Under the pieces are notes generated by a model that worked only from the letters and a program-made list of their open reading frames with translations, made no database searches and was not told the DNA's origin. A stretch of DNA of 55,539 nucleotides, the filler included, from Sphacelaria rigidula (taxonomy: Eukaryota): assembly GCA_964200075.2 (NCBI GenBank). It is 5 parts of 5 records of this genome, joined end to end, with 100 filler letters (N's around TTAATTAATTAA, not from the genome) between each part and the next. Parts side by side here need not be neighbours in the genome. Positions count along the whole stretch, not along the records: positions 1 to 11,030 come from CAXNAA020005510.1; positions 11,131 to 22,159 come from CAXNAA020005511.1; positions 22,260 to 33,287 come from CAXNAA020005512.1; positions 33,388 to 44,414 come from CAXNAA020005513.1; 1 more part is not named here. One strand, 5' to 3'. The translations under genes were made by a program, and so were the position numbers. Each line of letters opens with the position of its first letter. Within the stretch, counting starts at the first letter, position 1. Shown one piece after another: positions 1 through 44,171 of the stretch.

Positions 1-990
1 GAGACGGAGCACCGTTCCTACTCCTAATATAGACACCTCCAACATTCCGGCGCTCATTACCTTTCTTGCATACATTACACAAAAACCTTTTACCAATCTT
101 ATACCCGTCCTGTTTCGCCGTCTGTGGCCATCCTCTATCGCCTAGTATGACCATCGTTTTCTCCCTACGGTCTAATGCGTCAAACGATTTCATGTCACCT
201 TCGTTCACGTCCCGCATTTCCCCCTCCAACACGTCCCCTTCCCCCTTTTATAATTCACATTCTGCCACTATATGACTGTTGCTCTCTATTGCTTTGCCAT
301 AGAGGTAATTCTGTGCGTCTACGTTCTCCTCCTTTCGACCACTGCCGTATCTCTTTCTTCTTTCTGAAAGGTCCAGGTCCCCCACCCAAAATCGCAGTTT
401 CATATTTTTCGCCGAGTCCACGGGGCCATGCAAGTATGTTTCCATCTATCCCCTTTCTCAACCCCCCGTATGTCTCCAGGCAGTCTCCCTTGTAATGCGT
501 GAGAGGACCGCGTGCTTAGAGGGCCGCATCGGAATTCAAACACCCATATGGTTAGGGTTGGGGTGAGGGTTAGCGTTGGGGTTGGGGTCAGGGGCGTGGT
601 CCCTGCAGGGACTGGCTCGATTGGTTTTGAAAGAAGTTGACCCTGAGATGTTTTGGACTACAATGCGGTCATCTAAGCACGCGGTCTTCTCATGCATTAC
701 ATCCCTTGTCTACTTTGCGTCTGAGCGCTCTTTTCCCCCATATTTCCATAATATCTCTTCCTTTTATCTTGTTCCCGCGCCTTCACCTATGGACAGTATT
801 TCGTCTTGGTTTCCCCCTATGTCCTTCCATACATTCTCCACTTCCCCATCCCACCTTACTCCAGCCTTCCCTTCCGTGCTTTTCTTCCATACAGCCTTAT
901 CAAACTATAGCTGGCAATCGTTTTCTCTGCATGTTCTTTACGCTACAGTATATTGCCAACTCAATTTCCTCATGTTTCTGTTTGTTTGAA
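1..990 (-). mobile_element. Decayed non-LTR retrotransposon (LINE) ORF2 C-terminus and start of 3' region, interrupted by a telomeric MITE at 491-701
   Basis: Minus-strand KLRFWVGDLDLSERRKRY...GKAIESNSHIVAECEL resembles a degenerate C-terminal CCHC region of LINE ORF2; bases 1-70 match the LINE 3' ends at ~27270-27410 and 42441-42510. Confidence 0.75.
491..701 (+). mobile_element. Telomeric-repeat MITE copy 1
   Basis: TIR TGTAATGCGTGAGAGGACCGCGTGCTTAGAGG...CATTACA; internal degenerate TTAGGG tract; perfect 5-bp TSD TCCCT. Confidence 0.92.
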
Positions 991-1010
991 GTAAGTACAT
1001 TCCCAACTCT

Positions 1011-1250
1011 GACACTTTCTACGATAGCCTCCTCCCAAAACCAGCCCAAACGTGTCACGAAAAAAATATCCATACAGCTTGGGTTCAGGCTGCATGAAGC
1101 CAATCATATGGGCGACATTGGCGAGAACAAACCCAAGCGGGAATTCTGAGCTGCTTGTTGTGCTCGGCATTTTCCATTTCAATTTACGTGAAGATGTTGC
1201 CTCCCCAAACCAGGCACGTTTTTTGGGGGGGGGCTATCGCAGAAAGTGTC
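1011..1250. mobile_element. MITE with GACACTTTCTACGATAGCC TIRs (copy A)
   Basis: Terminal inverted repeats; inverted sister copy at 36773-37022; flanks CTCT/CCCT. Confidence 0.8.
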
Positions 1251-1416
1251 CCCTGCTCCCAGTGATGGTTTGGTACAAACAGACGGTATAGGTGGGGTTA
1301 TTAACAGTAGTCATCGCTACTGGCTTGCAGCAAGGCGATACGTCTCGTGGTCTCGAACAAGCATCCTGTTGAGTCCACTCGTGCATATTCAAATACGGGA
1401 TGACCACTGTAATATA

Positions 1417-1474
1417 TGATTGATTGATTGATTGGTTGTCGCACTTTAACTGACCCCCCAGGGGTCCAGCCGTG
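1417..1474 (-). mobile_element. 3' end of (ATCA)n-tailed retroposon
   Basis: CACGGCTGGACCCCTGGGGGGTCAGTTAAAGTGCGACAA followed by (ATCA)n on minus strand; same motif recurs near 32135-32190, 47051-47108 and 55352-55400. Confidence 0.75.
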
Positions 1475-2084
1475 ATCTGTAATATATACCATGTTGTTTG
1501 TGCACTGAAATTTATTATAATATCATGTCGACCATATTTCACACGCTGACGTACCGTTCATGAATCAGGCATCCGTACTGTATTGTCTCACCGTTGTTCA
1601 GCAACCAACCAGCAGAAAGGATAGCAAGAGAGAATACGTCCAACGTAGTACAGCTCACACGGAACGGCAAGGATCTTGATCACAGCTTCAGAAGCGATTC
1701 AGTTTCTCTTTTCTTCTTGGTGGCGTTTATCTTTGCACTCAGAAAGGAGTGAGCACCAGGGTTTTTAGTATCCAACTGAATTCCGACCGAATTCAACGGA
1801 TACCAAGAGGTATGCTTATGTATTCCGTCTCCCAAGGATGCAAACATCCTCACCCCTGACTGCGGTACTCGCCAGTTCCTGCAGTCAGCCCTCCAGGACT
1901 TTCAACCATCGGACCGACGGGCCCATCATCGTATTGTCCTACCACCACTTACGCTTCGATCCATAAGACCCCCCTCAGGCCTAGGGTTGAAAAACCCTGG
2001 GACTGAACGTGGTTCGATGATGGGTCGCCGCGTTACCATGTTCCTCTTCCTCGAGTAATCGGCACTGTTTCGTGTAGCCGTCGA

Positions 2085-2421
2085 TCTTGGTAACCGTCCT
2101 GCCGGGTCAGACCACGTAGGGAATATAAACATCGTGCAGGAACGATTCCATCCAGCCCGGAGCAGTTCTCAGCCTTGTTAACCGCTCTGCCGGGTCAGAC
2201 CACGTAGGGAATTTAAACACTATGCAGGAACGATCCCATCCAGCCCGGAGAAGTTCTCAATCTTCCGCTCTTGTTGATCGCTCTGCCGGGTTAGACCACG
2301 TAGGGAACTTGAACACCATACAGAAATGATCCCATCCAGTCTGGAGAAGTTCTCCATCTTGTTGATCGCTCTGTCGGCCACGCAGGGGATTTACACACCG
2401 TACATGAACAATCCCATCCAA
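2085..2421. repeat. Tandem repeat, ~90-100-bp unit, ~3.5 copies, in the Gypsy 3' region
   Basis: GCCGGGTCAGACCACGTAGGGAA...CCATCCAGCCCGGAG repeated near 2101, 2189 and 2286; partial copy near 2375. Confidence 0.85.
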
Positions 2422-3356
2422 TTCAGCTTGACTCTGGAACTACTCCGATACCTTGCATCCACCGCGTATTCACGTACCTGTGACGGAGTTATCTCCTCTC
2501 AGTCTCCCCCCTCATACTTGATACGATAGTACGGTTGCCGAAAAACCACCTCCTCGAATTCCTGTTGCTCACCTTGGTTGTGTGCAAACAACTTTTCAGA
2601 TCTTTGTACTCCGGGGAATCTGATTCCCCCCCGGCGTCACTTTTAAGGAAAAAGAATACTCCGACGAATTCCTGTTGTTCAACTTGGTTGTCTGCAAATC
2701 GCTCACGAAGCTTCGTGCCTCGGGGAATCTGACTCCCCCCCAGCGTCACTTCTATGGAAAGAGGATATTCAGATCGTCAGGAAGAGTTGAACAGGCATTT
2801 AGCTACGGGTTCAATGACCGTGGCTGCCAGTAGGAAAGCAAAGAGAAGTTTGCTCCCTCGATCCCCAACCACCAACAACTACCTATTATCCGAAGTAGAA
2901 ACCTGCTTCATGTCCGGTAGGTCCATCTCTTTTACCCCCCAGGGCTGCGAAAAGAGGGCGGGCCGCATCGCTATGATGTGGCTTTGAGCATGCTTGCGTA
3001 GGTGACAGCCACAAGACGGCACGAATTTGCGATTGTCGGCAAAAAACCGGGCCACTAATAGCGTGCGTTTACCACTGCGGTCGTTCTCAACCCCCCGGCG
3101 TGCCCATGCGTAGTGTGCACCAGCGGAAGCAGCCCGGCACCAGGCTGCGTGAAGCAGCTAACTCAGCTGGCGCCCTAGGTGACGTACACCATAAAAGATC
3201 ATCATCATCTAGAACGTACGCTTCCTGCTCATTACCAGTTCCTTCGTCCCGTTTCTCCTCCATTAATCTATCCCTGATATGTTGTCGGAAGTACCCCTTC
3301 ATACCCAACACCGATTGTGACTCCTCTACCCTCCGTGATTCCCTTAACTGAGTACG

Positions 3357-3404
<48 letters not shown>

Positions 3405-4968
3405 CCCACACACGGGGTGTCTAGAACAAAACCACACCGCCCCACCACCACCNNNNNNNNNNCCCAACACCCATTTTTTCTTCTCCCCCCCCCCTCTTTT
3501 CCTTCCCCTATTACCCCCCCCCCCCCCCCCCCCCTCAACTGAGCGATGGCCTCGATCTTAGATGGCGAAGGTCGTATTTCCGAAGCATCGATCGTAATCC
3601 CCACAGAGTCTTGTTGTTGGGTACACCACTGTGATTTCTGGAAATTCACCGTGAGGCCTCCAGTCAGCAAGTAATGCAGCATAACTCTCAATCCAGCCAT
3701 TCGACTGGGAAATGTCGCACGAAGCCACAAGATGTTGTCCAACCTATTCGTGACTCCCTCCGACGGTAACAACGCTTCGAGCACTCTCCGGTGAAAGGTT
3801 GCTGGCAATACCTCGAGTCCGAATTCGCAACGTTGTTGTTGCCTCATTGCCCCTTCGCGTCGTGAAAGACCGTGAGGTGTCAGTTCTTGCTTGCCTTCTC
3901 CAACTGGAAAAAACACTTACTAGACAAACACTCGGAAAGTACTTGAATCCATCTAGCCCACTATACATGGTCTACATATCCCCCAAACCGCCGCTGCATG
4001 ATTCGAGAAGTTCGTTCAGTCCACGGTAATCCTGACCCAACCGGAAACTACCGCCCTTTTTCAAACCGTGACGCAGGCGGCTGCCCATGCTGCCGTCGAA
4101 GACCCCATGATCCCCCGCTCCACGAGCTTCTGGACCTCGTCTTGGATAGCCGTCTCTTGTTCTGGCGAGTACTGCTTAGTGACGGCAGTGAATGGCCGAC
4201 ACCTGGGGACTTTCAGCCGTAGACGCACCGGTTCTCCACAAACGGCCTTCACTCGCTTAGGCTCCACCGCAAAACGACCTGCTTCTTTAAAGTCCTTCAA
4301 CAAAGATAGCAGCTGGATCTTCTGCGCTGGACCCGATTGGCCTATGTTCGCCTCCGTGACTCCACTCCTGCGGGCTCAGTCGTATCTCTCTCCTTCACCT
4401 CTGATGACTCCGACTTGGGGAGGAGCCGACACAGTCCCTCCGTCCTCCAGCTTCGACTTAAGAGTTGTGTCCAAGCCGGAAAGTTATAGATTCTGCAATC
4501 GCTCACGGTCTCGAACATTCACGACCACGACCTTTTCCACCACCATACCCTTTCCAACAAGGCGAGCACTCTTTGTGGTGTTTACCACCTTACACACCAG
4601 TGGTGATTGTGGGTCTCATCATTGCACTCCTCTGGCTACCCGTACTTCTGCCTCCCCATCTAAATTAAACGCCTTTCGAGGTTCGATCAACACGGGTCGC
4701 CGCTGCTGCGGATGAGGCCCTCGTGCGTAGCCAAGGACTGGCTTGCTAACGGGACCTTTTGACCTTACGTTCTCCGTTAGATGCAGCAGTCGCTGAAGCG
4801 CAGCGTCGTCCTCCCACGTCACCCCAAGGCTGTTCCACACCTCATCTCATGTTGCCAGTTCGCTGCCAGTAGACAACATCCCCGCCGGGTCGTCCCTGGG
4901 CGCGCTTGACTTGACGGCACCGAAGGGGTCTAAAGCTACCGAATCTCCTTGGCTGGTGAGGTGCTCGG

Positions 4969-5185
4969 TGTAATGCGTAAGAGGACCGCGTGCTTAGAGG
5001 GCCGCACCGGAATTTGAACATTCCTATGGTTAGGGTTAGGGTTAGGGTTAGGGTTAGGGTCAGGGTTATGGTTAGGGGCGTGGTACCTGCAGGGACTGGC
5101 CCGTTTGGTTTTGAAAAACGTCGACCCTGCGGTGTCTTGAACTACGGCGCGATCCTCTAGGTACTCGATCCTCTGACGCAATATA
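4969..5185 (+). mobile_element. Telomeric-repeat MITE copy 2 (inside Gypsy relic)
   Basis: Same TIRs; (TTAGGG)5 run; flanks CTCGG/GTCGG. Confidence 0.9.
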
Positions 5186-6262: not shown

Positions 6263-6473
6263 TGTAAAGCGTGAGAGGACCGCGTGCTTAGAGGACCGCG
6301 CCGTAGTCCAAAACACCCCAGGATCGACGTTTTTCGAAACCAATCGGGACAGTTTCTGCAGGAACCACGCCCCTGACCCTAACCCCAACACTAAACCTAA
6401 CCCTAACCCTAACCACAGAGATATTCAAATTCCGATGCGGTCCTCTAAGCACGCGGTCATCTCACGCATTACA
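6263..6473 (-). mobile_element. Telomeric-repeat MITE copy 3
   Basis: TIRs; CCCTAA tract; flanks ACGT/ACCT. Confidence 0.9.
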
Positions 6474-6794
6474 ACCTACCACATTGATGGGAAAACATCG
6501 ATTGAAACAACTACGGATGGTTCATGGCAGTATATTGTAATCTCCATGATTCGAGAGTCACGAGGGCGGTGTCTGGCGGAGACATTCTCAATCATTAACG
6601 GCGTGAGAAACAATGGAACAAGTACCATGGATATTAGCGCCTCACCAGCATAACGATAGCCGACAAGGAGGGGAAGGAGGACGAAGGAAACATCAATATG
6701 ACCGGACGAAGCAGGTTCACGCATGTGCATTTGGCCAGGGTATCACGTGTCGGGGACATCCAAGTAAAACTTCATGGACTTCGACCCCTCTACA

Positions 6795-7050
6795 CCCGTT
6801 CGGACATGCAAGGGAATTCTGACTCCATATCAACCTGTTCGAGCACGCATGGAAACATCCTGGCTCCCTGTCAACCTGTTCGGACATGCAAGGGAATTCT
6901 GGCTCCATGTCAACCTGTTCGAACACGCATGGGAAAACCCTGGCTCCCTGTCAACCTGTTCGGACATGTATGGGAACTCCTGGTCCCCTGTCAACCTGTT
7001 CGGACACGCAAGGGAATTCTTGATTCCCTGTCAACCTGTTCGGACAAGCA
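6795..7050. repeat. Minisatellite, 39-40-bp unit, ~6.5 copies
   Basis: TGTCAACCTGTTCGGACATGCAAGGGAATTCTGGCTCC-like unit with alternating A/B variants. Confidence 0.9.
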
Positions 7051-7579
7051 TGGTCTTGACATCTTGCGCTGTCACGATCGCCTATTTTCCTGTACGCAAT
7101 CAAACCCTGCTTGTTCACTGTATGGTGCAAGAATGTATATATATATATATATATTGGTTCATACAACTTTCTCTCTTTCATCCACTCAAAGTCCGGCTTG
7201 TATGTTGGTAACTTGCACAGTATCCACAATTATCACACGAGTCGTTCATTACAAGCCAAAATCCACCGTCGATTTGTTTCCGGTGTAAATCTCGGCAAAG
7301 GAATGTGTGGAACCCATGGACATCTCAAGGCCACCAGAACGTAGCCCTGCCCCGGCGACGGTCATAGCGCGCACAGCTAGACGGTCATCTTCGAATCGAT
7401 TGTCGGAGCACGCACAGCTAGAAGGTCATTTTCGAATAGATTGTCGGAGCATGTACAAGTATAGACCTTCATCGGGAACTTGCGGAGTTCCCGTTGAAGT
7501 GGCGCCTCGTGCGAACCTCGTAGCATGCAGCTTCACTCGTAGTCGCTCAATCGTTGTGGATCTGAGTTGGTCATCACAT

Positions 7580-8140: not shown

Positions 8141-8623
8141 CCCGCATCCCCAAACGTATATGATACACTCGGTACCAATAATTATTGTAGTAGACAACAT
8201 CTCGATAGCCCATCTGTATCTTTTTCACAGGTATTTCGTTAATTCACATCTGCTGGTTAAATGCTAAATTCGTTAACTCACATCATCTGCTGGTTAATTA
8301 CTAAATTCTGCGTTCAGTAGTTTCATTCAGGCAACATAGCCATCACTACCATATGTGTCCCCACAGGATATAGACTCGAATCAGCAGTACACGGCAGAGG
8401 TGATCTGAGCTCTTCGGCTGTCATACTCCGACATTTGATGCTCGATGGTGATTCGCTACAGTTTATCCCTAAAGGGAAAGCACATTACTCTTGAATTGTT
8501 GGACCAAGTACACAGTTGGGGCTTTAAGGAGGAGATAGTGCAGGCGGTATACAATCAGTACAGCCATCTTGTACAGCCATCTTGTAACAGCATCACAATA
8601 AATGAACCGATAGCATGCCGTAG

Positions 8624-8834
8624 TGTAATGCTTGAGATGACCGCGTGCTTAGAGGACCGCATCGGAATTTGAATATCTCTGTGGTTAGGGTTAGGGTTAG
8701 GTTTAGTGTTGGGGTTAGGGTCAGGGACGTGGTTCCTGCAGGAACTGTCCCGCTTGGTTTCGAAAAACGTCGATCCTGGGGTGTTTTGGACTACGGCGCG
8801 GTCCTCTAAGCACGCGGTCCTCTCACGCATTATA
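8624..8834 (+). mobile_element. Telomeric-repeat MITE copy 4 (near-identical inverted sister of copy 3)
   Basis: TIRs; shares variants GAGATGACC, AATATCTCTGT, CCTGCAGGAAC and TTTCGAAAA with copy 3; no clear TSD. Confidence 0.9.
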
Positions 8835-11030: not shown

Positions 11031-11130
11031 NNNNNNNNNNNNNNNNNNNNNNNNNNNNNNNNNNNNNNNNNNNNTTAATTAATTAANNNNNNNNNNNNNN
11101 NNNNNNNNNNNNNNNNNNNNNNNNNNNNNN
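11031..11130. other. Artificial contig linker
   Basis: N44-TTAATTAATTAA-N44. Confidence 0.97.
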
Positions 11131-13873: not shown

Positions 13874-13913
<40 letters not shown>

Positions 13914-15474: not shown

Positions 15475-18400
15475 TCATGAGTTGTTTCCGATATCAATAA
15501 TGACATCAGTGGAGGATACTCGCTGGTGCTGCTGTGGCCGCGGTGATTTGCTACCGCGCTTGGTAATGGGCGACCTCTGCCCGACCGCATGATACGAAAT
15601 GTCCTTGAGGTCATCACTGCCACTGCTATTGTCGTTGTTGCCTTTGTTGTCATTGTTGTTGGTGGCCATGGCTGCAGGGGTCTTGGACCTAGACCTGGGC
15701 GATAACGAAGCTAGGGAATGCCTGTCCGGCCTGGAGATCTCGTGCGCTAGTCGCTGGGCCGAGGCCAGCCAACGTCGAGCGGCACTCTGGGACTTATACT
15801 CCAGCTTGATCTGGGTGTCTTCGAGACGCTCGCGGGTCTGTGCATGCACAAGCTTTATACGTCAAGGGCGCAAGCCGAATCGGAGCGGAGGGAGTGGGGC
15901 TTCATTTAACGTTCCAGAATTACTTGAACGTCACTTGAGCGTTATACTCGTGCGCCTCCTCCGTTTCCCCTCCCCACAGTATAACATACTACGCTGACCT
16001 TCGGACCAATTCAATTCAACCGGCCCTTCTCAACGATGCGCGACTTCAAAACGTATTATCAACGTGTATTGCAGGCACGATCTGCATCACTGCATTTTGA
16101 TTGGGAGATATCGCACCTTTAGTCCAACCAGTTGCCTCGTGACGCTCTTCAACTGCATGTCCACCTCCAAGTGATCTTGTCGAGCAGCGGCCGTTTCTGC
16201 CGTCGCTCGGATGAGTACTTCCTCCAATTCCTCGGCGTACTGCTCCAAAGTTAATCCCGGACCCTTGGTCAAATCCCGACTTGCAAAGGATCCAGGTCTG
16301 CCGTATGTTTTGACCGACAACTTATACGTTAGTGGTGGGCAAATCGTTTCAAGTACTGCTACCGTTCATGAATGTGCTACACAGGGAGTCGATGGGGCCC
16401 GACCGTGGGACAAATGGCGCATCCCATGCACTAGAAATTCCATGAGGCCGTATTCACGAAGTGTTATTGCCTGATTTTCTAGGCTATACTATTCGTAGTA
16501 TAATAATGAAATGAAGACACGTCGTCAGTGCTGTACGAAAGGTTAGACAGCCCTTCCAGGCGAATCTACAACGCCGATATCGCTATAAGGCGTTACCGTA
16601 CCACAACAAAAGACCACACTCAGAATGTGTTGAAAGCGATCGTCGAATTTGCTGATGCCTTTCATCCGGTGTTCTCCTGAATGAAGCGAGCACAGGTAAG
16701 CTGACCAATGCTGATATCTTCATCAGATGTTAACATGAATGGTGCTTTTGCGACTCCACTCACAACGTTGTGAGATCGAGTGTAGACCATACTGTGTGTC
16801 TCGTGTCCGATGTTCTCCTGAATGAAGCGAGCGCCGATAAACTGGCGAATGTCGATATCTTAATCATTCGTCAAGATAAACGCTGCTCTCACGACTTCTT
16901 CCAGTATCATTGACGGCGCGTGTGCTGCCATAGCAAGCGACCAGACTCACTTCGACCCTCCCGTGATCGTCGATCCCATCGCGGCTCCGACCCCAGCGAC
17001 CATTGCTTTCAGGTCAATGATCCGCTGCTGCACGGAACGGCCCGCAATCTGACCACCCACGCCACTGCCGTCATATTGCGCGTCCTCAGCCTGCTCACGG
17101 CGGGACACGAAAGCCTGGAGCTGAGCCAGTCGGGTTCGATGCCCCGCTAACTCGTCGTCCCTCGAACCCACCGTCGCCTGAATTTTCAAGTGACAAGTGG
17201 GGCGAATGAACTTAGCGTTTGAACAGTTACATGGAAGCACTCACGCGAGAATGATAATCTAGTAGGTAGAATCCTCTGGAGACGTGGGTGGGGAAGTGAA
17301 ACTTCATCCTTGGGGAGATCAAACATGGAGTCTGATAAGTCTGACTGTGACAGTGATTCCTTTGCAGGCAGGACAAAGAATAATACGTAACATGAAGAGT
17401 CCTAGAGTTACATCGTCCCCCTCCAGGAGGTTTGCCGAATTTCTCGGATTCCAGTTGATGGTCAGATCAAGTTTGTGCTCCGAATTTGAATGATCGAAAC
17501 GGTACGTCTCCCCGTTGCCGAACGACTCGCCTTTAGCATGCCTTCTAGTGATTCAGCACGGGTGGATGCTTCGTCCGCCGAAGCTTTGGCGCCCTCCGTT
17601 GCCGCCTCAGCATTTTCCGTCCGCCGCAACAGCTCTTCATATCTCTTACTCCACCTTTCTTCCAAATCGCTCAAACTAGCGGCGTGTTTCTTGCCTAGCG
17701 TGTCCAGCTGCCACTGGCGTTCTATGTCATGGTCACGATTAGCGGCCTCTGCGGCAGCTTCGACGGCCGCTACTGTGGAGGCTTCTTCCGCCAGTTTTTC
17801 CCGGGCGACGGTCAAACGAGCCTGTAGATCAGACTCCACGGCGGCTAGTCGCTCCCGTGCTTTTGTTTCTCCCTCCGCTATATATTTTGCTTGTTCCGCT
17901 TTTATCAGGGCCACTGCCGCCTCGTGCGATGCCCGTTCCGCTAGAAGCTCCAGGTGATGGTTGGCCTTCTGTGCGTCTCTCGCTATAGCCCCCTCCTTCT
18001 CTACTGCCGTGAGTTTCACCGCAAACCCCTCCGACAAAACCTTGAGATCCTCTATCCGCTTTTCTTCCGCTGCTTCTGCTGCGACTCGAATATCGTTTTT
18101 TTGCTTTTCCCTGATCCTAGATAGTTCTTGCCCATGCTTCGCCGCCAACTCATCCCGTGCTGCTGCAATCATGCTCGCCTGCTGACCTTTCGCCGTCGCT
18201 CTCAACCTCTTCTGAATACCGATATCAGCCTTGCGTTGCGCTTCAACGGCTGCAGTAGCTTGTGAAATGGCTGCATCTCGCTCGTCAGCGGTCACCTTTA
18301 GCTCCCTTTGGTGTTCCGATCTCAAGGATTCCAGTGCAGAATTCAACTCAGCCTCGGCCGCCAACTTTCGCTCCCTACGATCCTTATCAGCTCTGCGTAT

Positions 18401-22159: not shown

Positions 22160-22259
22160 NNNNNNNNNNNNNNNNNNNNNNNNNNNNNNNNNNNNNNNNN
22201 NNNTTAATTAATTAANNNNNNNNNNNNNNNNNNNNNNNNNNNNNNNNNNNNNNNNNNNN
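22160..22259. other. Artificial contig linker
   Basis: N44-TTAATTAATTAA-N44. Confidence 0.97.
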
Positions 22260-27269: not shown

Positions 27270-27410
27270 AAGTAATGAGCTTTTGAAGAAACGTAATGAG
27301 CGCCATAATGTTGGAGGTGTCTCTATGAGGAGTAGGAACGGTGCTCCGTCTCGAAAAGGGATGCGTGGTCAATGGTCGAACGACTAAGGCAAGCAGCAAA
27401 TGAGTACCCC
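27270..27410 (+). mobile_element. 5'-truncated LINE 3' end
   Basis: Matches the reverse complement of 1-70; ends GCAAATGAGTACCCC; C-rich tracts on both sides. Confidence 0.8.
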
Positions 27411-31039: not shown

Positions 31040-31300
31040 ACATCGAACGGGGGTTCGATTCCCGATGCGTTGGGGTTTTTTTCTTCGTAATGTATGAATT
31101 GCAAGGAGGAAAGCGTGAGAACGTGAGTAGACAAAAGTAGTCGGCTGGGTTTGTGTGACGTGAGTTGACGCGGTGCGGGAGTACTGATCCAATCCGCGAG
31201 ATCAAAATGAACGGAAGATACCGGGGGAGAGATGGGTTGATCCCTTGAGACCACGGACTCATCCCGAGGAAGGGGAAGGGTTCAAAGTGTGAGGAAAAAA
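31040..31300 (+). mobile_element. tRNA-derived SINE, 5'-truncated
   Basis: B box GGTTCGATTCCC; body collinear with 38205-38445. Confidence 0.75.
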
Positions 31301-32047: not shown

Positions 32048-32079
<32 letters not shown>

Positions 32080-33287: not shown

Positions 33288-33387
33288 NNNNNNNNNNNNN
33301 NNNNNNNNNNNNNNNNNNNNNNNNNNNNNNNTTAATTAATTAANNNNNNNNNNNNNNNNNNNNNNNNNNNNNNNNNNNNNNNNNNNN
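33288..33387. other. Artificial contig linker
   Basis: N44-TTAATTAATTAA-N44. Confidence 0.97.
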
Positions 33388-34744
33388 ATATTTATTCCAG
33401 TATGGGACAATCGGAACAGAAACAAGTGTACTACCTGTGTGTACATGTCATGACCTTCAGAGCTCAGTTGCACGCGGTGCGTGTTGGTATGATCACCAGG
33501 GGTTGCGACGTATCGGAAATCGTACATGCGCTGATGGGGGCAACCATCCTATATACAATACCTAGAGTTGTAGCCCCTCCCTTCGTGGACCCCTTTCAAC
33601 AAAAACGCGTTTTGGACACGGGAGGACTACACGGGACTGTGGGCCCCACTGAAGATCCGATCATCACTGTCTACACTCCAACAAATGATACCAACCACGA
33701 TACCCCCGATCGACTCTACTTTCATGGCGTCGGGTTGAAGGTGTCCGTACACACCGAAGTTCGCGCGACCCACGACTTGCGCACACGTACAACGAACAGC
33801 ACACNNNNNNNNNNGTGAGATTTCCAACAGCGTCGCCAGCGTTTTGTTTCCTCCCATTTGTACAGGACGGGACACAAAAACAGCACAGCACACGAGGCAA
33901 TCCTCCACGCGGATCAAACCGCCTTCACATACTGCAGCACACTACAGGACTGTGCAGTGAGATGCGCATCATATCAAGAGGCCGTCAAAACGTGGGACAA
34001 GAAATCACTCCGTCTGCATCGATGCACTACAACAACAGTAGAAGTGCCTCATACCTGTGGAGTGGATGATACCAATGAGCGGTCTGCACACGCGTTCGCT
34101 GAGGCCGTGCCTTCCCCGTGTGGAATCCATTACATCTCGCGCTTGCGTCACCTGCGGTAAAACAATACAGGATATCGTGGTAGATGCGGACCGTACCATT
34201 CATGTTACTTGTTGATCCTACGAGTATGCAGGCGCCGATTTCGAAAAAATCCCGTCTACCCCGACCGAGCACATTGTATCCAGTGCGTCATCTCGCTCAT
34301 CTGCACACAACACTTATCGATGAAGTGGTGACTGGCCGGTGTATCAAAGACCGTCCCGTAGTCCGCGGTCTCATAGACCTCTTACATTTCGTACTCATTG
34401 TATTACCGGCGGCGAGCCAACACGAGACAATACCGTGCAGATGGGTGCCCGTGGTTTTGTCGAACGGACCACTTGGCACGCGGCAGGAACAGCATGATTT
34501 GCTCTTCCCTCCGTGTTGTGCAACATGCACGATCTCCACCCGTCAATCAATGGAGTAATGCTTCAACAATAGCGCTGTACAAATTTCGTCTCTGTGAGCG
34601 ACCTTCATTCGTCCGAAATATGACACTCACCAAATGTTTTGAAAGATGCTCTGCAGAGGGATACTAGGTGGCTGGGAGGAAGTGATATAGAGAGGGGCCG
34701 ACGTGTCTCGGGCGTGTGGGCGAAGTTAATGACATTCGGAACAG

Positions 34745-34912
34745 TTAGAGGACCGCATCGGAATTTGAACATCCCTATGGTTAGTGTTAGGGTTAGCGTC
34801 AGGGGCGTGGTACCTGCAGGGACTGGCCCGATTATTTTCGAAAAACGTCGATCCTGAGGTGTTTGGAACTCAGACGCGGTCCTCTTCGCACGCGGTTCTC
34901 TCACGCATTACA
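34745..34912 (+). mobile_element. Telomeric-repeat MITE, 5'-truncated
   Basis: Lacks the outer left TIR; right end CGCATTACA intact. Confidence 0.88.
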
Positions 34913-35202
34913 CCGTGTTTCATTCAACATCTGTGTTCGGCCAAAAATGAAAGTGCGGCCAGCGGAAAATGCAAAGTTGCCCTGGGACGGTCTCAATGAG
35001 TAGAGCAAGTCATTTCAAGGCGTCACTCTCCGCCTAGCCCTTTTTTCAGGCGAAGAGCGACAGAGGCGGACCAAAAAGGTGGTTTTCATACAGGAGTTGT
35101 GAACGGCTCCCATTAGAGTCGGTCTAATCTTTCATATTTGCAACGTCGACTATACATGTAGCATTCCAGTGGAATATTTCATGAAAGAAGGGATGTTATA
35201 AC

Positions 35203-35344
35203 AGGGTTGGGGCTAGTGTTGGGTTTGGGGTCAGGGGCGTGGTCCCTGCAGAGACTGGTCCCATCGGTTTTGAATAACGTCGATCCTGAGGTGTTTTGAA
35301 GTACGATGCGGTCCTCTAAGCACGCGGTCCTCTCGCACATTACA
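35203..35344 (+). mobile_element. Telomeric-repeat MITE, 5'-truncated within the G-rich tract
   Basis: Starts in the GGGTT tract; right TIR intact. Confidence 0.88.
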
Positions 35345-35689
35345 ATTGGTCGAAAACAAAAGTGCGACCAACGGGAAACGCAGAGTTGCCCTAGAACGGT
35401 CCTTAACGAGTAGAGCAAGTAATTCCAAGGCGTCAACACCCGCCTAGCCCTCTTTTCGAGCGTGAATCGACGAACAAGGACACAAAAAGTAGTTTTCGAC
35501 AGGAATTTTGAACGGTTCCCATTAGAGTTGGCCTTACAAACGGTGTTCTTCGCAGCAATAAATAATTCCGAAAATATAAATTAAATCTCAAATCGACACA
35601 CAACAAGCCCACACTTGAAGAAGAGCAGATGTGGTGAAATTTGGTCAACTCAAAACTACATATGTACATGTACCATTTCACTTTTTTCA

Positions 35690-35875
35690 TCACTTTAGCC
35701 GAGTTTTCTCTGGCAGCAAGGCATCTTATTATGCGCTTTCTTTTGCAGTGCACGAAGAAGGCGCAGCGGCACATTACCTTTTTGGTTTGGGTGACACCTG
35801 CGGCGCGTGTTCTGGCCATCGAAAGTCGCCCGCACTGGCTCTTTTTCGCGGGGTGTCGATCCCGCACCACAAAAG
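35690..35875 (+). repeat. Dispersed repeat (second copy ~37260-37455)
   Basis: Shared TTTTCTCTGGC.GCAAGG...CGAAAGTCGC...TTTTTCGCGGGGTGTC. Confidence 0.7.
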
Positions 35876-36246
35876 CTTCCCCCAGTTCATGAAAAACTTT
35901 AAGCAGCAGGATGATTGTTGACGGGATATTTTCCCCCCGTGTTTCCCTTCGTCGGGTTCTCGTTCATTTGGGAGCACGATTACACCGCTTATGCCGCCAC
36001 GAGAACATGAGAGCAATGCAGTTGAAAACAATTGAACATTGCCTTGGGCTTAGTCAGCAGCAAACACCAGACCGTGCGGTGAGCCTTTGACGAGGTGAAC
36101 AAGGCACACGCGTGGGCAAACGTCCCAACTTTGGGCCACCTGTATTGACCATCAAAGGGCGGTGCCGAAATCCCTGTGATCATGCAACCCGTAGGATGCA
36201 CCTGGGAAGTACAGGCGCAGGGATATCCTTGTGGCAGGGTTGACAG

Positions 36247-36457
36247 TGTAATGTGTGAGAGGACCGCGTGCTTAGAGGACCGCATCGGAATGTGAATATC
36301 CTGATGGTTAGGGTTAGGATTCGGATCAGTGTCGGGGTTATGGTCAGGGGCGTAGTTCCTGCAGGGACTGGCCCGATTGGTTTTGAAAAACGTCGATCCT
36401 GAGGTCTTTTGAACTACGGCGCGGTCCTCTAAACACGCAGTCCTCTCACACATTGAA
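36247..36457 (+). mobile_element. Telomeric-repeat MITE
   Basis: TIRs; perfect 5-bp TSD GACAG. Confidence 0.92.
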
Positions 36458-36772
36458 GACAGGGTTGTCCTTGTGACAGGGATGACAGGGAGAATCATAC
36501 GAGTACGCACCTCATGTATATTTCGACGGCTTAATACCGTGTTTTCAGTACAAGTCAAGCGTTACTTTGCTTGTGGATTTCTCCGCCGTGTCTGAACAAA
36601 CCAGCCTGGAAATTGGCACAGAAGTAGACCACAACACAGACAGCATATTCTCGGATCGGCGGCACGTTTTACGTGGTGTACCAGACGCACGAAGTGAATA
36701 GGGGTTCTGGGCAATGCCATCGATATGCCTTCAAAACGGACCCCCCTCGGCCCAGACTGTGTGAGACGTCAG

Positions 36773-37022
36773 GACACTTTCTACGATAGCCCCCCACCAA
36801 AACGTGCATGGTTTTGGGAGGCAAAATCTTTATGTAAATCGAAATGGGAAAAGCAGAGCACAATGAGAAGCTGGGGAGTCCCGCGCTTGGGTTCGTTCTA
36901 GCCGATGTCGTCAATATGAGGCGCTTTATGCAGCCTGAACCCGAACATCAGGCGCTGCACGGCCAACGTTTTCGTGACACTTTTAGCTGGTTTCGGGGGG
37001 GGGGGCTATTGTAGAAAGTGTC
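36773..37022. mobile_element. MITE with GACAC TIRs (copy B)
   Basis: GACACTTTCTACGATAGCC...GGCTATTGTAGAAAGTGTC; 4-bp TSD TCAG. Confidence 0.82.
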
Positions 37023-37898
37023 TCAGTGAATGCATATTATGTGGACACGCAGATGCGCTCACCTCCACATCATGACCCCCTGGGTGGCTCCTGCCCCGGC
37101 AAACAAGCATCGATCCATATTGGGTAGACTCTGGTTCATGTCATTCTACGCGATATCTATCTTGGTATCGCCTGTGGCGAGGTACTCACTTCAGGAGGCA
37201 CGGTCGTGCAAGCGCCGTCAGTGCTTTTACGCGCGATGTATATTATGTGCACGTATCATTTCACCGCTTTTGCCGACTTTTCTCTGGCGGCAAGGTATTT
37301 TTTCCCACACGTCCTATTGCGGCGCATCGAGAAGGCTCAGCAGTACATCACCGTTCAGGTTTGGGCGCCATCTGATGCCTGTGGCGGGTGTTCTGACCAC
37401 CGAAAGTCGCTCAAACTGGTCTTTTTTCGCGGGGTGTCAATCCCGAACCAAAACTCTCCAAGATCGTGGGAAACTTGACAAAATATATTTTCGACTTGCG
37501 TCACCCCCGGGAGGCCCGTACCAGCCTCCTGAAGGGGAACCTTGTATACTGTATCAAATTACAGTAGATCCTGGAAAATGGGGTCGATCTCAAAAATGAG
37601 GTTCAAGTGGCATATCTACTTTTTTGCAGGAATGACGCGAAACAGTAACCCAGAGCGAAACCATCTTTCCCCTCAAAACTCTGCAGCCGTGAATCCGTTG
37701 TGGCTAAATGCACCGAACGAATGCGGTGTACACGCGTGTCGATGACGATATCACCAGAGAGGGAAGCGAAGACAGAGAGGAATAGGCTTCTCGCCCGTGT
37801 CCTTTGTGTGTTCACGCCTGGCGATCACCAATCGCCTGAGAGACTGGCATCATGCATGTTACCAGCACGTACCGAATTTCTCATGTGCCGGTAGGTAT

Positions 37899-38115
37899 TG
37901 TAATGCGTGAGAGGACTGCGTGCTTAGAGGACCACGCCGTAGTTCAAAACACCGCAGGATCGACGTTTTTCAAAACCAGTCGGGTCAGTCCCTGCAGGTA
38001 CCATGCCCTTGACCATTACCCTAACCCTAACCCTAACCCTAACCCTAACCCTAACCATAGGGGTGTTCAAATTCCGATGCGGTCCTCTAAACACGCGGTC
38101 CTCTCACGCATTACA
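37899..38115 (-). mobile_element. Telomeric-repeat MITE
   Basis: TIRs; (CCCTAA)6 run; no TSD seen. Confidence 0.92.
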
Positions 38116-38150
38116 TACTCTACTGGTGATAATCACCCTGCTACCCGTAA

Positions 38151-38460
38151 TGCCGCCGCGCCCCGGTGGTGTAATGGTCCGACTGCCGCCATTAGGGTGG
38201 AGAGAACGAGGGTTCGATTCCCGATGCGTTGGGTTTTTCCTTCGTAGTATATGATATCCACCGTGTACAGCGTGAGAACGTGAGTAAACAAAGCAGTTGA
38301 CTGAGTTCGTTTGACGTGAGTTGACGCGGTAGGGGAGTGCTGATCCAATCCGCAAGACCAAAATACCTTTACCGGGGAGAGATGGTTTGGTCCCTTGAGA
38401 CCACGGATTCGTTTCGAGGAAGGGGAGGGGTTCAAAGTGCGACAAATGAAAATCAAGAAA
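38151..38460 (+). mobile_element. tRNA-derived SINE, near full length
   Basis: A box TGGTGTAATGG, B box GGTTCGATTCC, then a non-tRNA body ending GAGACCACGG...GGGGTTCAAAGTGCGACAA. Confidence 0.8.
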
Positions 38461-39335
38461 ATATGAAATATTCTCCATCAATCGAAATACACATAAATCC
38501 GCCAGGCATTAATCAAGTTCTAGAACATCCAAGCATGTTGACAAGGTGACTTTGTCATTGTCTAGACACTGAGACTCGATATCATCGACACCGTGATTTC
38601 GGAGAACTCAGAAGTGTTTGGGGCTGGCAAGGTACCTGCTGACTCTCACATGCCCACGAGCGCCACGGCGTACCCACAGAGCAGCTCTCCGAAGTGCTAC
38701 GTTGCAGTCCCCGGATTTCTGGGACTTATCCGAAAATGAAGCTTCGGAAGAGAAATTGAACCGCGTCGCTTGCGGAAAAGTCTGATCGCGCAGTCCGAAG
38801 AGTCCGAAAATTTCTGAGACCTTCGAAGGGACAGTTTCGATAATAATATACCTGACGCGACCCATCTGCTCGGTACTTGCAGGTACTGACATGTAATTTG
38901 CATGCAGTCTACTTTGACGTTCAAGGCAGCTTCAAAGTAAACACCCAAGTCAAGACCACGAACCTTGCTCTTCTCCGCAGAGATGTCATCGCAGTGACTT
39001 GGTCTTGACTGGTGTATTTACCTTGTAGCTGCCTCGAACAGCGCAGTAGACCGCAGGCAAACCACCGTTCAGAACCTGCAAGTACGGAACAGATTGGTCG
39101 TTTCGGCATCTGGTGTCTGCTAGTACCGAGAAGATGGGTTGTCTAGGCATCTAGTACCTTCAAGTGCCGACAATCAGTTCTGTCGATGCGGTCATGGCCT
39201 GCGTGGTAGGCGCCGACACCTTTCAACAATACACTGGAGCCAACCCTTTCCCACCACAATCCACGTGCGAGAGTGACTCCCGCGCGAGTCACGGGTGCCT
39301 GGATTTTGTTTTTTCGGAATCCCCGCTCTCCTCCC

Positions 39336-39544
39336 TGTAATGCATGAGAGGAGTGCGTACTTAGAGGACCGCATCGGAATTTGAACATCCCTATGGTCAG
39401 GGTCAGGGTTAGGTTTAGGGTTAGTGTTGGGGTGAGGGTCAGGAGCGTGGTCCCTGTAGGGGCTGGCCCGAGAAAAACGTCGATCCTAAGGTGTTACGAA
39501 CTACGGCGCGGTCCTCCAAGCACGCGGTCCGCTCACCCATTACA
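39336..39544 (+). mobile_element. Telomeric-repeat MITE
   Basis: TIRs; perfect 5-bp TSD CTCCC. Confidence 0.92.
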
Positions 39545-39696
39545 CTCCCTTTCGAGGCACACCGTGTCGTCGTCGTGTCGCTCTAGTCACCTCGCCTGGC
39601 TTCCGCTACCCCAGACACGATAAACGCACGGCCTGGGTTTGCTCGGGGCGCGGTCTGTGCATTCATGGAGTCCGTGACGTCCTCCGGGCATGTCCG

Positions 39697-39756
39697 TTAT
39701 GGGGTGTTCAAATTCCAATGTGGTCCGAAACGCACGCGATTCTGGCACACATTACA
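39697..39756 (-). mobile_element. Old fragment of telomeric-repeat MITE (one end)
   Basis: TATGGGGTGTTCAAATTCCAATGTGGTCC...CACATTACA. Confidence 0.65.
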
Positions 39757-39779
39757 CCTCTGCCATCGCGGCCTCATCG

Positions 39780-40290
39780 AACAGATGCCGGGGCACGCAC
39801 CCCTCGCGGCCGCGTCCCCGATGGAAGAAGTCAAGGAAGTGGATACCTGGCGAACAGCAAGGCCGTTGGGACTGATCACCTGTGTGGCGAACTATTCAAT
39901 TTCGGCCTCACCAAGGACCCTGCCATGCTAAGGGCTTTCAAGACGTCGTGCTTCCGGTGTACCACCGGTAAGTAGTGCCACAGGAATTCAAAAACTCTGT
40001 CATGAAGGCGCTATTCAGGAAAGAGGGCTATCACGAATGTGGTAACTACTGTACCGCGGCATCTCGCCAGGGTTCCACGTGGGCAAGGTGATTCTCAGGG
40101 TAGCTGCGATTCACTTCAGCGCACACTGCGCGGGGAGGGGGAATCCTACCAGAGAATCAGTGCGATTTTGGACCCGGCCGGTCGGCAGTTGACACGATGT
40201 ACGTGGTGCGCCGACTCCAAGAACTGACTGGAGAGAAGAATCTTTCGGTGAAACTGTTTTCCATCGACCTCACAAATGGCGCACGGCTCA
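39780..40290 (+). pseudogene. MIF4G (eIF4G-like) domain pseudogene fragment
   Basis: LGLITCV/GELFNFGL (frameshift) resembles the MIF4G GNxxFIGELF motif; downstream YVVRRLQELTGEKNLSVKLFSIDL resembles the last MIF4G helices; GTAAGT donor at 39968. Confidence 0.4.
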
Positions 40291-40321
40291 GTCGGCCACT
40301 ACACCTCTTGACAGGTCCTGT

Positions 40322-40532
40322 TGTAATGGGTGACAGTACGGCGTGCTTAGGGGATCGCGTCTTAGTTCCAAACACCTGAGGGTCGACGTTTTTCAAAACC
40401 AATTGCGCCAATCTCTGCAGGGACCACGCCCCTTACCCTAATCCCAACAATAGCCCTTATCCTAACCCTGACCATAGGGGTGTTGAAACTCGGATGCGGT
40501 CCCCTAAGCACGCGGTTCTCTCACGCATTACA
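40322..40532 (-). mobile_element. Telomeric-repeat MITE
   Basis: TIRs; 4-bp TSD CTGT. Confidence 0.9.
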
Positions 40533-40534
40533 CT

Positions 40535-41990
40535 GTCACGATACGGTGTCCCCGCCAAGGTGATTTCCATCATCGGTTAGTTCCACGCGCATGCATGCCG
40601 GCGAGCATGCAATGTTACGGCGGCGAAATTATCGAGTGGTTCAATGTTGATCAGGGTCTCCCCCAAGGCTGCGTGATCCACTCACGATTTGTGCAGCATC
40701 TTCTTTGCGGGAGTGCTGAGGGTGACGGTCGACCGCTTCTCGATCGCTGAAGCGGCGGTGGATGACTACACTGATATCGCTTCTGAAGTGGGACAACCAG
40801 GAACGAGCTTTGTGGGGTGCTTCGGCCATAGTGTACGCCGACATATGCTGGCATCGCGTTGCGATCTCGATTAGACCCGACAAACATGGTCGCAACCATA
40901 GTCGAAGTCTGTGAGGCGTCCGGTTCTGTCGTGGCGAAAAACAAGACATCAACCACACGGGTGGCCACTGGGGTGCCTGTATCTCAAAGTTGGACGTTAT
41001 AGACCTTGCGCGACGTATGTGACGTTCAAATTTGAGGTTGCAGCTACCCCAGTCGCCACCCGTGCATGCACATGCGCTTCTCAAGCGTGACGGTGAATGC
41101 GATAAAGGTGGAGGCGGTAGGCGAAACGTAGAAGCAGTTTAAGGTTTTTCTTCTGTCACCGCCGCATCGACCGGGCTCGAAAGTGCTTCGTCAAGTACAG
41201 CAACCCGACATTCGACGACCTGTACATCGTTGTGGCCGAAACGATTTTTTCTCTGAAGGCAGAAGTGATCGAGATCGTACCCTCTCGCTGAGCGACCTGG
41301 ATGTTTTCGCCTTATGATCTCGACCCGTTGCGGAGAGTCCACCGTGGGTTCTTGCTGAGGTGGCTCACCGAGCATATCTTGATCCACAGCACTCCCCACT
41401 ACTACACAATGCCATCATACCACGAGGGTTTCGGGAGAACTTGCTGCGACTGTACCGAGGTTACCATAATAAGAGAAATCCTACGATACGCCGGCCGCGT
41501 CGCGGGCATGCACGATGGGCGCCCCCCCAGCATTATCATGCGTAAGAAAATGGTCGAACAGGAGAAGGCGAGTCAACCTGCGAAACGCTCGCAACGCTGT
41601 CCCCCATGGGTACTACTGTAAAGCGTGAGAGGACCGCGTGCTTAGAGGACCGCGTCGGAAGTCGAACATCCCTATGGTTGAGGTTAGGGTTAGGGTTAGG
41701 GTGAGGGTTGGGGTTGAGGTCAGGGTCGTGGTTCCTGTAGGGACTGGTCCGATTGGTTTTGGAAAACATCGATCCTGAGGTGTTTGCACGGTGCGGTCCT
41801 CTAAGCACGCGGTCCTCTCGCGCATTACACTACTCCATCTTTGTACTAGACGCGACATGATGAACGAAAATCACCCCAATATGGTTCCGGATGGTATCGG
41901 TTTGCAAAGGAAGGAGCTGTGAAGTACATCACAAATTGGACCAGTGGGCGCCATACAAAGGAAGCTTCCGCTGCGTTACCACTAGAGATT
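40535..41990 (+). mobile_element. Decayed RTE-clade LINE reverse transcriptase, interrupted by a MITE at 41617-41829
   Basis: RYGVPAKVISII, WFNVDQGLPQGCV, IFFAGVLRV, VYAD, LRRVHRGFLLRW, YAGRVAGMHDGRPP. Confidence 0.8.
41617..41829 (+). mobile_element. Telomeric-repeat MITE
   Basis: TIRs; 4-bp TSD CTAC. Confidence 0.92.
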
Positions 41991-42216
41991 CTTCTGTCTC
42001 TCTCGAAGGTCGCCGAAGCGTAATGAGTCACCCATGACGTAGTATACTCGCTAGTGCGTCTCTGTTTTCCGGAGACCGTTCGTAATTTCTCCGGGGGTAC
42101 CCGGGGGAGTGTTTCACTCTCTCTTGACGTCCATCAAGATCCTTTACTCTACTGATAGATATGATCTGTTTGCTTACCACATCCTGACCAACGTGGGGGG
42201 AGAGGGGGCGGGAGGG

Positions 42217-42440
42217 TGTAATGTGCGAGGGGACCGCGTGCTTGGGAGACCGCATCGGAGTTTTAGCACCCCTTTGGTTAAAGGTTAGGGTTAGGGTTGG
42301 GGTTAGGGCTAAAGTTGGGGTTAGGGCCAGGGGCGTGGTTCCTACAGGGATTGGCCTGATTGGGTTCGATAAACGTCGATCCTGGGGTGTTGTGAACTAC
42401 GATGTAGTTCCCCAAGCGCGCGGTCCTCTCACGCATTATA
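42217..42440 (+). mobile_element. Telomeric-repeat MITE inserted at a LINE 3' junction
   Basis: TIRs; long GGGTTA-type tract; flanks AGGG/GGGG. Confidence 0.9.
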
Positions 42441-42510
42441 GGGGTACTCATTTGTTGCTTGCCCTAGTCATGTGACCATTGACCACGCATCCCTTTCGAG
42501 ACGGAGCACT
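42441..42510 (-). mobile_element. 5'-truncated LINE 3' end
   Basis: Reverse complement matches 27341-27410; G-rich tracts on both sides (42195-42216 and 42513-42533). Confidence 0.8.
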
Positions 42511-43894
42511 TGGGGGGGGGGGAGAGAGGGGGGCTTAATTTTCTATTTCTCGATGTTTCTATCTTTTTGACCATTATTTTTATTCTTTGTTCTCGGAGTC
42601 TTACTCGTAGATAAAGCCGCGCAATGAGCTCTTCTATCTATCTCACGTAAAGATTAGTAGTGAAGGTACTGGACAGGCGAACCTACGTCTGTGACCACGG
42701 GTTTTAGAAATTGACGAGTGCTCAAAACCAAGTATGGTTCTAGAGATTCGCGAGAGCAAGATTTCCGGAGCTGCTTGAAAGAAACCGTTCATCCGACCTT
42801 GAGTTAAACCGGGCGCACTGAAGATCGGAAAAGTGCGTTAGAAGCCTCGCAGGGAGTGCAGCGCCGAGTCTCTCTGGGGTTGCACAACCCACCGAACACC
42901 GTACTCTGGCGAGACTCGGCACGGAATCGCCAAAAAAGGCGTCTTTGGGAGATATTACACATCGCTTCTACAGGATCGCATGTTGAGAACCTGCATCACG
43001 CTTCAAACAACCATATACGTGTGGCGAGACCTACGGAGTCGACGTAGACATAGATCTCGACTTGTGAAGTTGAACGGCACTATAGTATCATGGTCGTAAG
43101 CTGCGACCATCAGATATGATATGACAAGAAATACTCCACAAGTCTTCTACCGTAGGCCGGAGCAGCATGAGAACTGCGAAATGGAGAACACGCTGGATCA
43201 AAAGCACTGACGTCCAACCGTCCACCCACCCACCCTCCAGGATATCGTTCCCTTTGGACGGTGGTGTAGGATCCCCGAGGTTCACTAATGAAATACAACG
43301 TTTGGATGCCTGCTTAATCGCCGGTCGGAACAGTCTGGACAAGTCATAGGGCAACAACATCGATCCTGACGGAGGAACGACACCAGAACCCTGCTGCGGT
43401 AATATCCTTCAATTATAAATAATGGTGAATATCGCACGCATTTGATTACTCGGTTCATGTTTGCAATGGTGGTTGTGGCCTTTCATTGAGGGTGAGGGCG
43501 CCTTGATTTGTGCATATAAGACCTTTGCATGAGTACGTGACTCCGATACTCGCAATTTTGAACAGATTACACAGTTTGCGCCTCGCATTTTATTTACCGT
43601 TCTTTCATTTCCCCTGGGCACCCGGTCGACCGCATGTATCACCCCTGCCGCCATTCCCCTCGATGCGTCCCACATCCGTGGTTGAGGATAGATCTTAACC
43701 GAAATACTACGAACGTACAGTGCAGGTGGAAGTTCTGCGGGGAACTGCCGCGGGTCGCGGTGAACACGGGGAGCATCGTGAACGGAGCGAAGTACCCAGT
43801 CCTAAGAAAAGGGAAACCACACGGTGACAGCACTTTTCAATGAAACACAGGCGCCAGGCGCGACCACTGATGGATCAGCTGTAGAAGACTAGGG

Positions 43895-43942
43895 TGTACT
43901 CATCATCATGCATGCCATAGTCATAAAGACCATTGACCTCGC
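43895..43942 (-). mobile_element. 48-bp retroposed LINE 3' tip
   Basis: Perfect 12-bp TSD AGAAGACTAGGG; second copy at 52796-52840. Confidence 0.8.
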
Positions 43943-43967
43943 AGAAGACTAGGGGGTGGCAGAGGGT

Positions 43968-44171
43968 TGTAATGCCCGGGAGGACCGCGTGCTTAGGGAA
44001 TCGCACCGTAACTCAAAATACATCAGGATCGACGTTTTCCTAAACCAATCGAGCCATTCCCTGAGGGACCACGCCCCTGACCCTAACCCCAACCCTAACC
44101 CTAACCCTCACCATAGGGATGTTTAATTTCCAATACGGTCTCCTAAGCATGTGGTCCCCCCACGCATTACA
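43968..44171 (-). mobile_element. Telomeric-repeat MITE
   Basis: TIRs; CCCTAA tract; flanks AGGGT/ATGGT. Confidence 0.9.

Follow-up and report, generated by a model that had tools for sequence, protein, structure and literature searches.

A family of short inverted-repeat elements with a telomere-like tract in the alga Sphacelaria rigidula and its resemblance to integrase-type transposons

In the portions of the literature drawn on here, the integrase-type DNA transposons Ginger1 and Ginger2 both have TGTNR termini (Bao et al. 2010, PMC2836005): Ginger1 has terminal inverted repeats (TIRs) of 40-270 bp and 4-bp target-site duplications (TSDs) that read CCGG (75%) or CCGT/ACGG (24%), and Ginger2 has TIRs of 50-180 bp and TSDs of 4 bp, or of 5 bp for TDD-4 and TDD-5, at an AT-rich target, RTATAY (PMC2836005). 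TSD lengths are elsewhere given as 4 bp for Ginger1, 4 or 5 bp for Ginger2, 6 bp for Polinton, and 3-6 bp for long terminal repeat (LTR) elements (Kojima 2023, PMC10045372). The same source describes IS481EU elements of parabasalids, which have an IS481-like DDE transposase, TGT..ACA ends, TIRs that are mostly shorter than 50 bp, and discrete TSD classes of ~4, ~15, and ~25 bp, with seven TSDs of 4 bp and one of 5 bp recorded among the copies of one family (PMC10045372); the GingerRoot/IS3EU group is described as having 6-bp TSDs and TA..TA ends. Miniature inverted-repeat transposable elements, or MITEs, derived from Ginger2 (Ginger2_NA) are known in Bombyx mori and Rhodnius prolixus (PMC3845634). 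Here, we describe a family of ~211-bp elements with TGTAA ends and an internal telomere-like tract, found in 55,539 nt of the alga Sphacelaria rigidula (assembly GCA_964200075.2, five parts joined; the whole of this stretch is called the window below). On balance, we lean towards reading the family as non-autonomous cut-and-paste MITEs of the integrase type, of the Ginger2/TDD kind.

Like Ginger2/TDD elements and their derivatives, the family has TGTNR ends, TIRs of tens of base pairs, 4- or 5-bp TSDs, and the form of a short non-coding derivative of a few hundred base pairs; unlike them, as far as these sources go, it occupies targets that are not AT-rich, has a TIR below the 50-180-bp range unless an imperfect extension is counted, holds an internal telomere-like array, shows no linked transposase, and comes from an alga rather than from an animal or Dictyostelium. 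With Ginger1, as it is described in the same sources, the family shares TGTNR ends, TIRs from ~40 bp, and a 4-bp TSD, whereas most of its own TSDs are 5 bp long and none of its five exact ones is CCGG, CCGT, or ACGG. Among elements associated with telomere repeats, Penelope-like elements end in them, and a review, in its treatment of the question, lists transposition as one proposed origin of interstitial telomeric sequences, the support given there being flanking-element associations only. The TBE elements of Oxytricha are, like the present family, cut-and-paste DNA transposons in their mode of movement and carry the host telomere repeat, but they belong to Tc1/mariner, are autonomous, have ANT as their TSD, and bear the repeat at the tips of both TIRs, whereas the Sphacelaria family has a single tract that lies inside the element and always points the same way.

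Copies, termini, and insertion sites

A 211-bp consensus was built by pairing TIR matches, orienting the copies by their G-rich tract, and aligning them, and BLAST of this in-window consensus against the window returned 14 copies at 80-94% identity to it (Table 1), of which 11 are full (204-224 bp) and 3 partial, exactly the count given in a preliminary description of this DNA. The 37-mer TIR has 16 matches at no more than 3 mismatches (0 expected from 100 shuffles) and 23 at no more than 7, and the 10-mer AGAGGACCGC within it occurs 23 times (0.06 expected). A repeat finder, applied to three full copies, delimits inverted arms of 39-57 nt with 79-95% complementarity, each holding a pair of AGAGGACCGC(G) units with a spacing of 16 bp; the pattern matches and the repeat finder agree on the 37-bp TIR with paired sub-repeats that had been described, which is near-perfect over 37 bp and reaches ~55 bp when an imperfect extension is counted. 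The sequence TGTAA/TTACA stands at 18 of the 22 full-copy termini, as it does at the ends of the consensus, giving the TGTNR...YNACA form characteristic of Ginger. Between the arms, the core is asymmetric, and every copy can be aligned in one orientation; along the window itself, the orientations of the full copies are mixed. Ten of the 14 copies lie within 9.4 kb, and the 11 full copies have flanks that bear no relation to one another. Folding of full elements yields long hairpins (z scores of -2.9 to -9.5), as is expected of any TIR element.

Coding capacity was examined in 407 stop-free open reading frames (ORFs), comprising 17 of at least 150 aa from the whole window, 256 of at least 70 aa, and, close to the copies, 134 of 45-69 aa. 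No transposon-related Pfam domain (reverse transcriptase, integrase, RNase H, endonuclease, or other) was found in any of them at E <= 0.01, the matches obtained being low-complexity and sub-threshold only, and the window holds no Rfam family and no tRNA called by ARAGORN. Judged from its sequence, the element does not code for a protein and does not match a known RNA.

Five of the 11 full copies are flanked by exact TSDs, three of 5 bp and two of 4 bp, and four others by duplications with one mismatch (Table 1); all of the exact duplications in the preliminary description were recovered, together with near-matches. The test covered duplications of up to 6 bp, and when applied identically to 20,000 random site pairs, it succeeded at a rate of 0.00535, which gives a binomial P of 2e-9 for 5 of 11. 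The predominant length is 5 bp (three exact and two one-mismatch TSDs, with one of the 4-bp duplications also readable as 5 bp), and imperfect TSDs are to be expected because the copies have diverged from the consensus by 6-20%.

An empty site was found for one copy, as the preliminary description had proposed might be looked for. Contigs from four public runs (X1, X2, X4, and X5) were placed on positions 33900-44400 at 90% likeness, and in three contigs of X2, three of X4, one of X5, and none of X1, position 36241 is joined directly to 36458, with 216 bases skipped and five letters that fit either side. Because the skip equals the 211-bp copy plus one GACAG, this joint is a precise empty site with a single GACAG, and it shows that the element at 36247 entered a pre-existing repeat as one separate unit of 211 bp and duplicated 5 bp on doing so. 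No contig of the four runs joins across any copy with unique flanks in the same interval, although the absence of other joints proves nothing. The TSD statistics and the precise empty site together support the view that this non-coding TIR element is mobile and duplicates 4-5 bp on insertion.

The family is very abundant. Summed contig depth over the bins that bear copies is 100-1000 times that of unique neighbors and, in X1, reaches 76,740 in the bin of copy 39336 against 142 and 66 in the adjacent unique bins, a sum that is not convertible to a copy number. The insertions at 39336, 42217, and 43968 are shared and old, because contigs of X1, which comes from a different study and differs by ~2% in unique DNA, run into or across these copies: they enter 39336, span 42217, and start inside 43968. 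Pairwise identity among full copies is 76-90%, except for copies 6263 and 8624, which are 97% identical. Mutation in the 11 full copies does not favor CpG positions (33/330, or 10.0%, versus 193/1972, or 9.8%, at the rest), and this lack of hypermutability hints at a host without CpG methylation in these copies.

Several smaller features of the copies and their flanks can be recorded here. At 5 of 25 termini, the tetranucleotide GTAG is present no more than 8 nt beyond the end of the element, compared with a background of 1.6% (nominal P of 4e-5, for a motif picked post hoc); the termini concerned belong to copies 6263, 8624, 37899 (both ends), and 41617. The flanks of copy 37899 are, in addition, inverted-complementary for ~11 nt past the TIR. 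The GTAG flanks and this extension may reflect a preference in the choice of target or a target that is palindromic; that copy 37899 might lie within a composite or extended element was considered and rejected, there being no TSD outside the 11-nt extension. The near-identical copies 6263 and 8624 are inverted and 2.15 kb apart, and neither has an exact TSD. An inversion between them as the cause of the missing TSDs was rejected since the flanks do not have the expected reverse-complement pattern, and neither do the flanks fit a composite element formed by the pair. A 9-bp flank match between 39756 and 43968 does not extend further and was set aside. The lone left-arm fragment at 39701-39756 stops exactly where the telomere-like tract would start and could be either a truncated copy or the trace of a relative with a different interior.

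Table 1. Copies of the inverted-repeat family in the window, with flanking duplications and other particulars
Feature	Coordinates	Strand	Particulars
Full copy	491..701	+	211 bp; exact 5-bp TSD TCCCT
Full copy	4969..5185	+	217 bp; decayed right end (..CAATATA); near-TSD CTCGG/GTCGG
Full copy	6263..6473	-	211 bp; closest to consensus (94%); near-TSD ACGT/ACCT
Parts of copy 6263..6473	6263-6299, 6437-6473; 6371-6414		TIR arms; C-strand tract
Full copy	8624..8834	+	211 bp; no recognizable TSD (GTAG/GAGG)
Partial copy	34745..34912	+	Consensus 26-211; left TIR lacks its outer 25 bp
Partial copy	35203..35344	+	Consensus 70-211
Full copy	36247..36457	+	211 bp; exact 5-bp TSD GACAG; empty site in contigs of X2, X4, and X5
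Full copy	37899..38115	-	217 bp; 6.5 perfect ACCCTA units; no TSD
Full copy	39336..39544	+	209 bp; exact 5-bp TSD CTCCC; X1 contig enters copy
Fragment	39701..39756	-	56 bp; left TIR and subterminal region, consensus 1-56
Full copy	40322..40532	-	211 bp; exact 4-bp TSD CTGT
Full copy	41617..41829	+	213 bp; exact 4-bp TSD CTAC, 5 bp (ACTAC) counting the terminal A
Full copy	42217..42440	+	224 bp; most diverged (81% to consensus); near-TSD AGGG/GGGG; X1 contig spans the whole copy
Full copy	43968..44171	-	204 bp; near-TSD AGGGT/ATGGT

The telomere-like tract

Positions 60-102 of the consensus are occupied by a G-rich, degenerate (TTAGGG)n / (GGTTAG)n tract that has a single orientation in all copies covering that region, and the copy alignment bears out the earlier claim of an asymmetric core with a tract at a fixed position and orientation. 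In 9 of the 11 full copies, the tract is picked out by Tandem Repeats Finder; perfect TTAGGG units number from 1 to 6 per copy, and the longest telomere-like array in the window, in copy 4969..5185, amounts to 8.3 GGTTAG units. Because position and orientation are fixed in every copy that covers the region, the tract was already in the founder element. Substitutions in the alignment stand at 9.0% within the tract, compared with 6.9-13.2% in other regions of the element, and all 25 insertion columns fall in or beside it. With a substitution rate inside the range of the other regions and with the insertion columns confined to it and its edges, the tract looks, from the alignment, like inherited passenger cargo, a neutrally evolving microsatellite subject to slippage: it would have been present once in the founder, then passively copied, and would since have been changing by slippage and by point mutation at a neutral rate. 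Five of the 11 copies retain a strict four-run G-quadruplex motif, which the consensus lacks at a 7-nt loop limit.

How the founder acquired the tract is a matter of speculation. Telomerase might have healed a broken left arm that was later rejoined to the right arm, and the polarity of the tract (its G-rich strand runs 5' to 3' away from the left arm) is as expected under such an origin, an orientation that would have had an even prior chance of arising in any case. We regard it as improbable that the tract is more than cargo, that is, that the family was born by telomerase healing and that thousands of copies are recognized by the host telomere machinery. Were it true, dispersed copies could bind proteins of the Myb/TRF type, seed telomeres at breaks, form fragile G-quadruplexes, or tether the element, and the family would offer a clean example from nature of how mobile elements spread interstitial telomere repeats, as has long been proposed.

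Classification and competing explanations

The copies are very probably non-autonomous TIR DNA transposons, and if they are, an integrase-type (Ginger-like) superfamily is their probable home, the fit to this group coming from the TGTAA ends in combination with the 4-5-bp TSDs. The family would thus behave like a Ginger2/TDD-type MITE, a putative membership read from its ends alone. The two AGAGGACCGC repeats of each arm are likely binding sites for a transposase acting in trans, which the termini and the TSD length suggest to be a DDE enzyme of integrase type, akin to that of Ginger2/TDD. At integration, the target is cut with a stagger, in most cases of 5 bp and in some of 4 bp, as the TSDs and the one empty site show. 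The premise of the preliminary description, that TG...CA ends with 4-5-bp TSDs typify integrase-type DDE transposons, agrees with the TGTNR ends and TSDs of 4 or 4-5 bp given in the passages of the literature on these groups (PMC2836005, PMC10045372); its proposal of a Ginger-like non-autonomous element is borne out as to TGTNR-type ends and TSD length and is not as to Ginger target preference.

A number of observations count against this assignment. The window contains no transposase gene and no longer element with the same TIRs, and a search for a long TIR-sharing element with an integrase-like ORF, which had been proposed as a check, found none in the window or in the scanned collections. 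A 23-mer of the TIR has no match in metagenome, viral, or prokaryote-genome collections; similarly, a core 23-mer has none in viral contigs and a degenerate 22-mer none in prokaryote genome contigs, and the two metagenome loci (L001 and L002) that match the degenerate 22-mer do so over only 21-29 pattern bases, resemble the element nowhere else, and are put down to chance. None of the five exact TSDs, a small sample, is CCGG/CCGT, as in Ginger1, or AT-rich and RTATAY-like, as in Ginger2; the 37-bp TIR is shorter than the published 40-270 and 50-180 bp unless its imperfect extension is counted; the occurrence of both 4-bp and 5-bp TSDs in a single family is on record for IS481EU and not for Ginger, although decay could explain it; and TG..CA ends with a 5-bp TSD are also an LTR-retrotransposon signature. 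Copies 8624 and 37899 lack any recognizable TSD. Finally, the contigs with the empty site are most likely paralogous copies of the host repeat and not alleles, because the flanks are highly repeated and the contigs were placed at 90% likeness.

These points bear unequally on the alternatives. A cut-and-paste MITE of some other or undescribed DDE superfamily (IS481EU-like, Transib, 5-bp-TSD hAT relatives, or a new group) is a less likely explanation, though one to be taken seriously: the assignment to Ginger draws on the ends only, neither Ginger target preference is seen, and IS481EU, with its TGT..ACA ends, non-autonomous families, TIRs mostly below 50 bp, and 4-bp TSDs with an occasional 5-bp one, fits at least as well as Ginger in the traits that its description gives. 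IS481EU is, however, reported in that description from parabasalids only, its ~15- and ~25-bp TSDs were not seen here among duplications of up to 6 bp, and the TGTNR terminus is stated for both Ginger groups. As for Transib and hAT, their termini (CAC.. and YARNG) are unlike TGTAA, which counts against both.

The signature of TG..CA ends and TSDs that are mostly 5 bp, within the 3-6 bp given for LTR elements in the sources above, is classically that of an LTR and would be equally at home if the copies were solo LTRs of a very small, TRIM-like retrotransposon left behind by inter-LTR recombination; the empty site cannot separate a solo LTR from a MITE. Nevertheless, solo LTRs are unlikely, and we give this origin only a slight chance, since a near-perfect 37-bp TIR with paired sub-repeats fills a third of the 211-bp unit, which would be odd for an LTR, none of 12 same-orientation pairs in the window has outer TSDs in common, no common internal sequence adjoins any copy, and the 407 ORFs include no reverse transcriptase, RNase H, or integrase domain nearby. 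Duplication of larger segments does occur in the window: the partial copies 34745 and 35203 are one segmental duplication, because they have a common right flank (34779-35125 aligns to 35211-35534 at 74%, over ~340 bp), and 10 of the 14 copies crowd into 9.4 kb. To extend this to the whole family, as an immobile sequence multiplied when a larger unit was duplicated segmentally or in tandem, the apparent TSDs arising by chance, is scarcely credible in light of the unrelated flanks of the full copies, their mixed orientations, the TSD statistics, and the existence of a precise empty site; for the full copies, an origin by duplication only is effectively refuted. The Ginger2/TDD-type MITE remains the reading that we prefer.

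Genomic setting and significance

The DNA neighboring the copies is highly repeated, to judge from contig depth. The preliminary description had placed copies inside LINE, Gypsy, and RTE relics, an identification that the 407 ORFs do not sustain, as none has a transposon domain; its related claim that the copies are younger than the surrounding repeats holds for at least copy 36247, through its empty site, whereas the retroelement identity of the surroundings gains no support. To the right of copy 37899-38115 lies a very-high-depth repeat (38150-38445, with a related copy at 31045-31292) in which stretches resembling, by eye, the A box (TGGTGTAATGGT) and the B box (GGTTCGATTCCC) of a tRNA can be seen, although ARAGORN calls no tRNA; it is probably a tRNA-derived SINE (short interspersed nuclear element). 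An extremely abundant repeat beginning with GGGGTACTCATTTG occupies 42441-42509, in the highest-depth bin, with a relative at 27341-27410; copy 42217-42440 abuts its end, and hundreds of contigs run past 42509 into sequence seen at 1-67. Tandem arrays lie between copies at 2086-2377 (period 88/96), 6794-7053 (40/80), and 25302-25726 (42/84 bp).

Further from the family, the minus strand at 17462-20719 contains a stop-free ORF of 1085 aa, the only gene-like one in the window, Ala/Glu-rich and coiled-coil-like, with no Pfam domain. It is internally duplicated (19074-19394 aligns to 19548-19868), and its only relatives are three proteins from public run assemblies, at 99%, 40%, and 27% identity. 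Paired runs of 44 N with 12 bases between them recur every ~11,128 bases (11031-11130, 22160-22259, 33288-33387, and 44415-44514) and look like regular masking, not biology; gaps of 10 N stand at 3453, 13972, 33805, and 46101, the first two after poly-C runs (3357-3407 and 13875-13913).

In the open-access papers searched, no account of a MITE that holds a telomere array in its interior was found, nor are the TIR strings in print there; a 13-mer TIR match in a Toxoplasma paper is a chance match. We rate telomere-repeat-carrying transposons as known and the present family as a MITE with integrase-type ends and an unusual cargo. As such, it is a concrete case of a short DNA transposon that copies a (TTAGGG)n-like array to many sites, with relevance to the mapping of telomere repeats, to assembly and telomere-finding software, and possibly to genome stability. 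Adding the family to the repeat library of the organism would stop its copies from passing as scars of chromosome fusion or as telomere ends, and if the Ginger assignment is true, integrase-type DNA transposons and their MITEs would be extended to an algal lineage.

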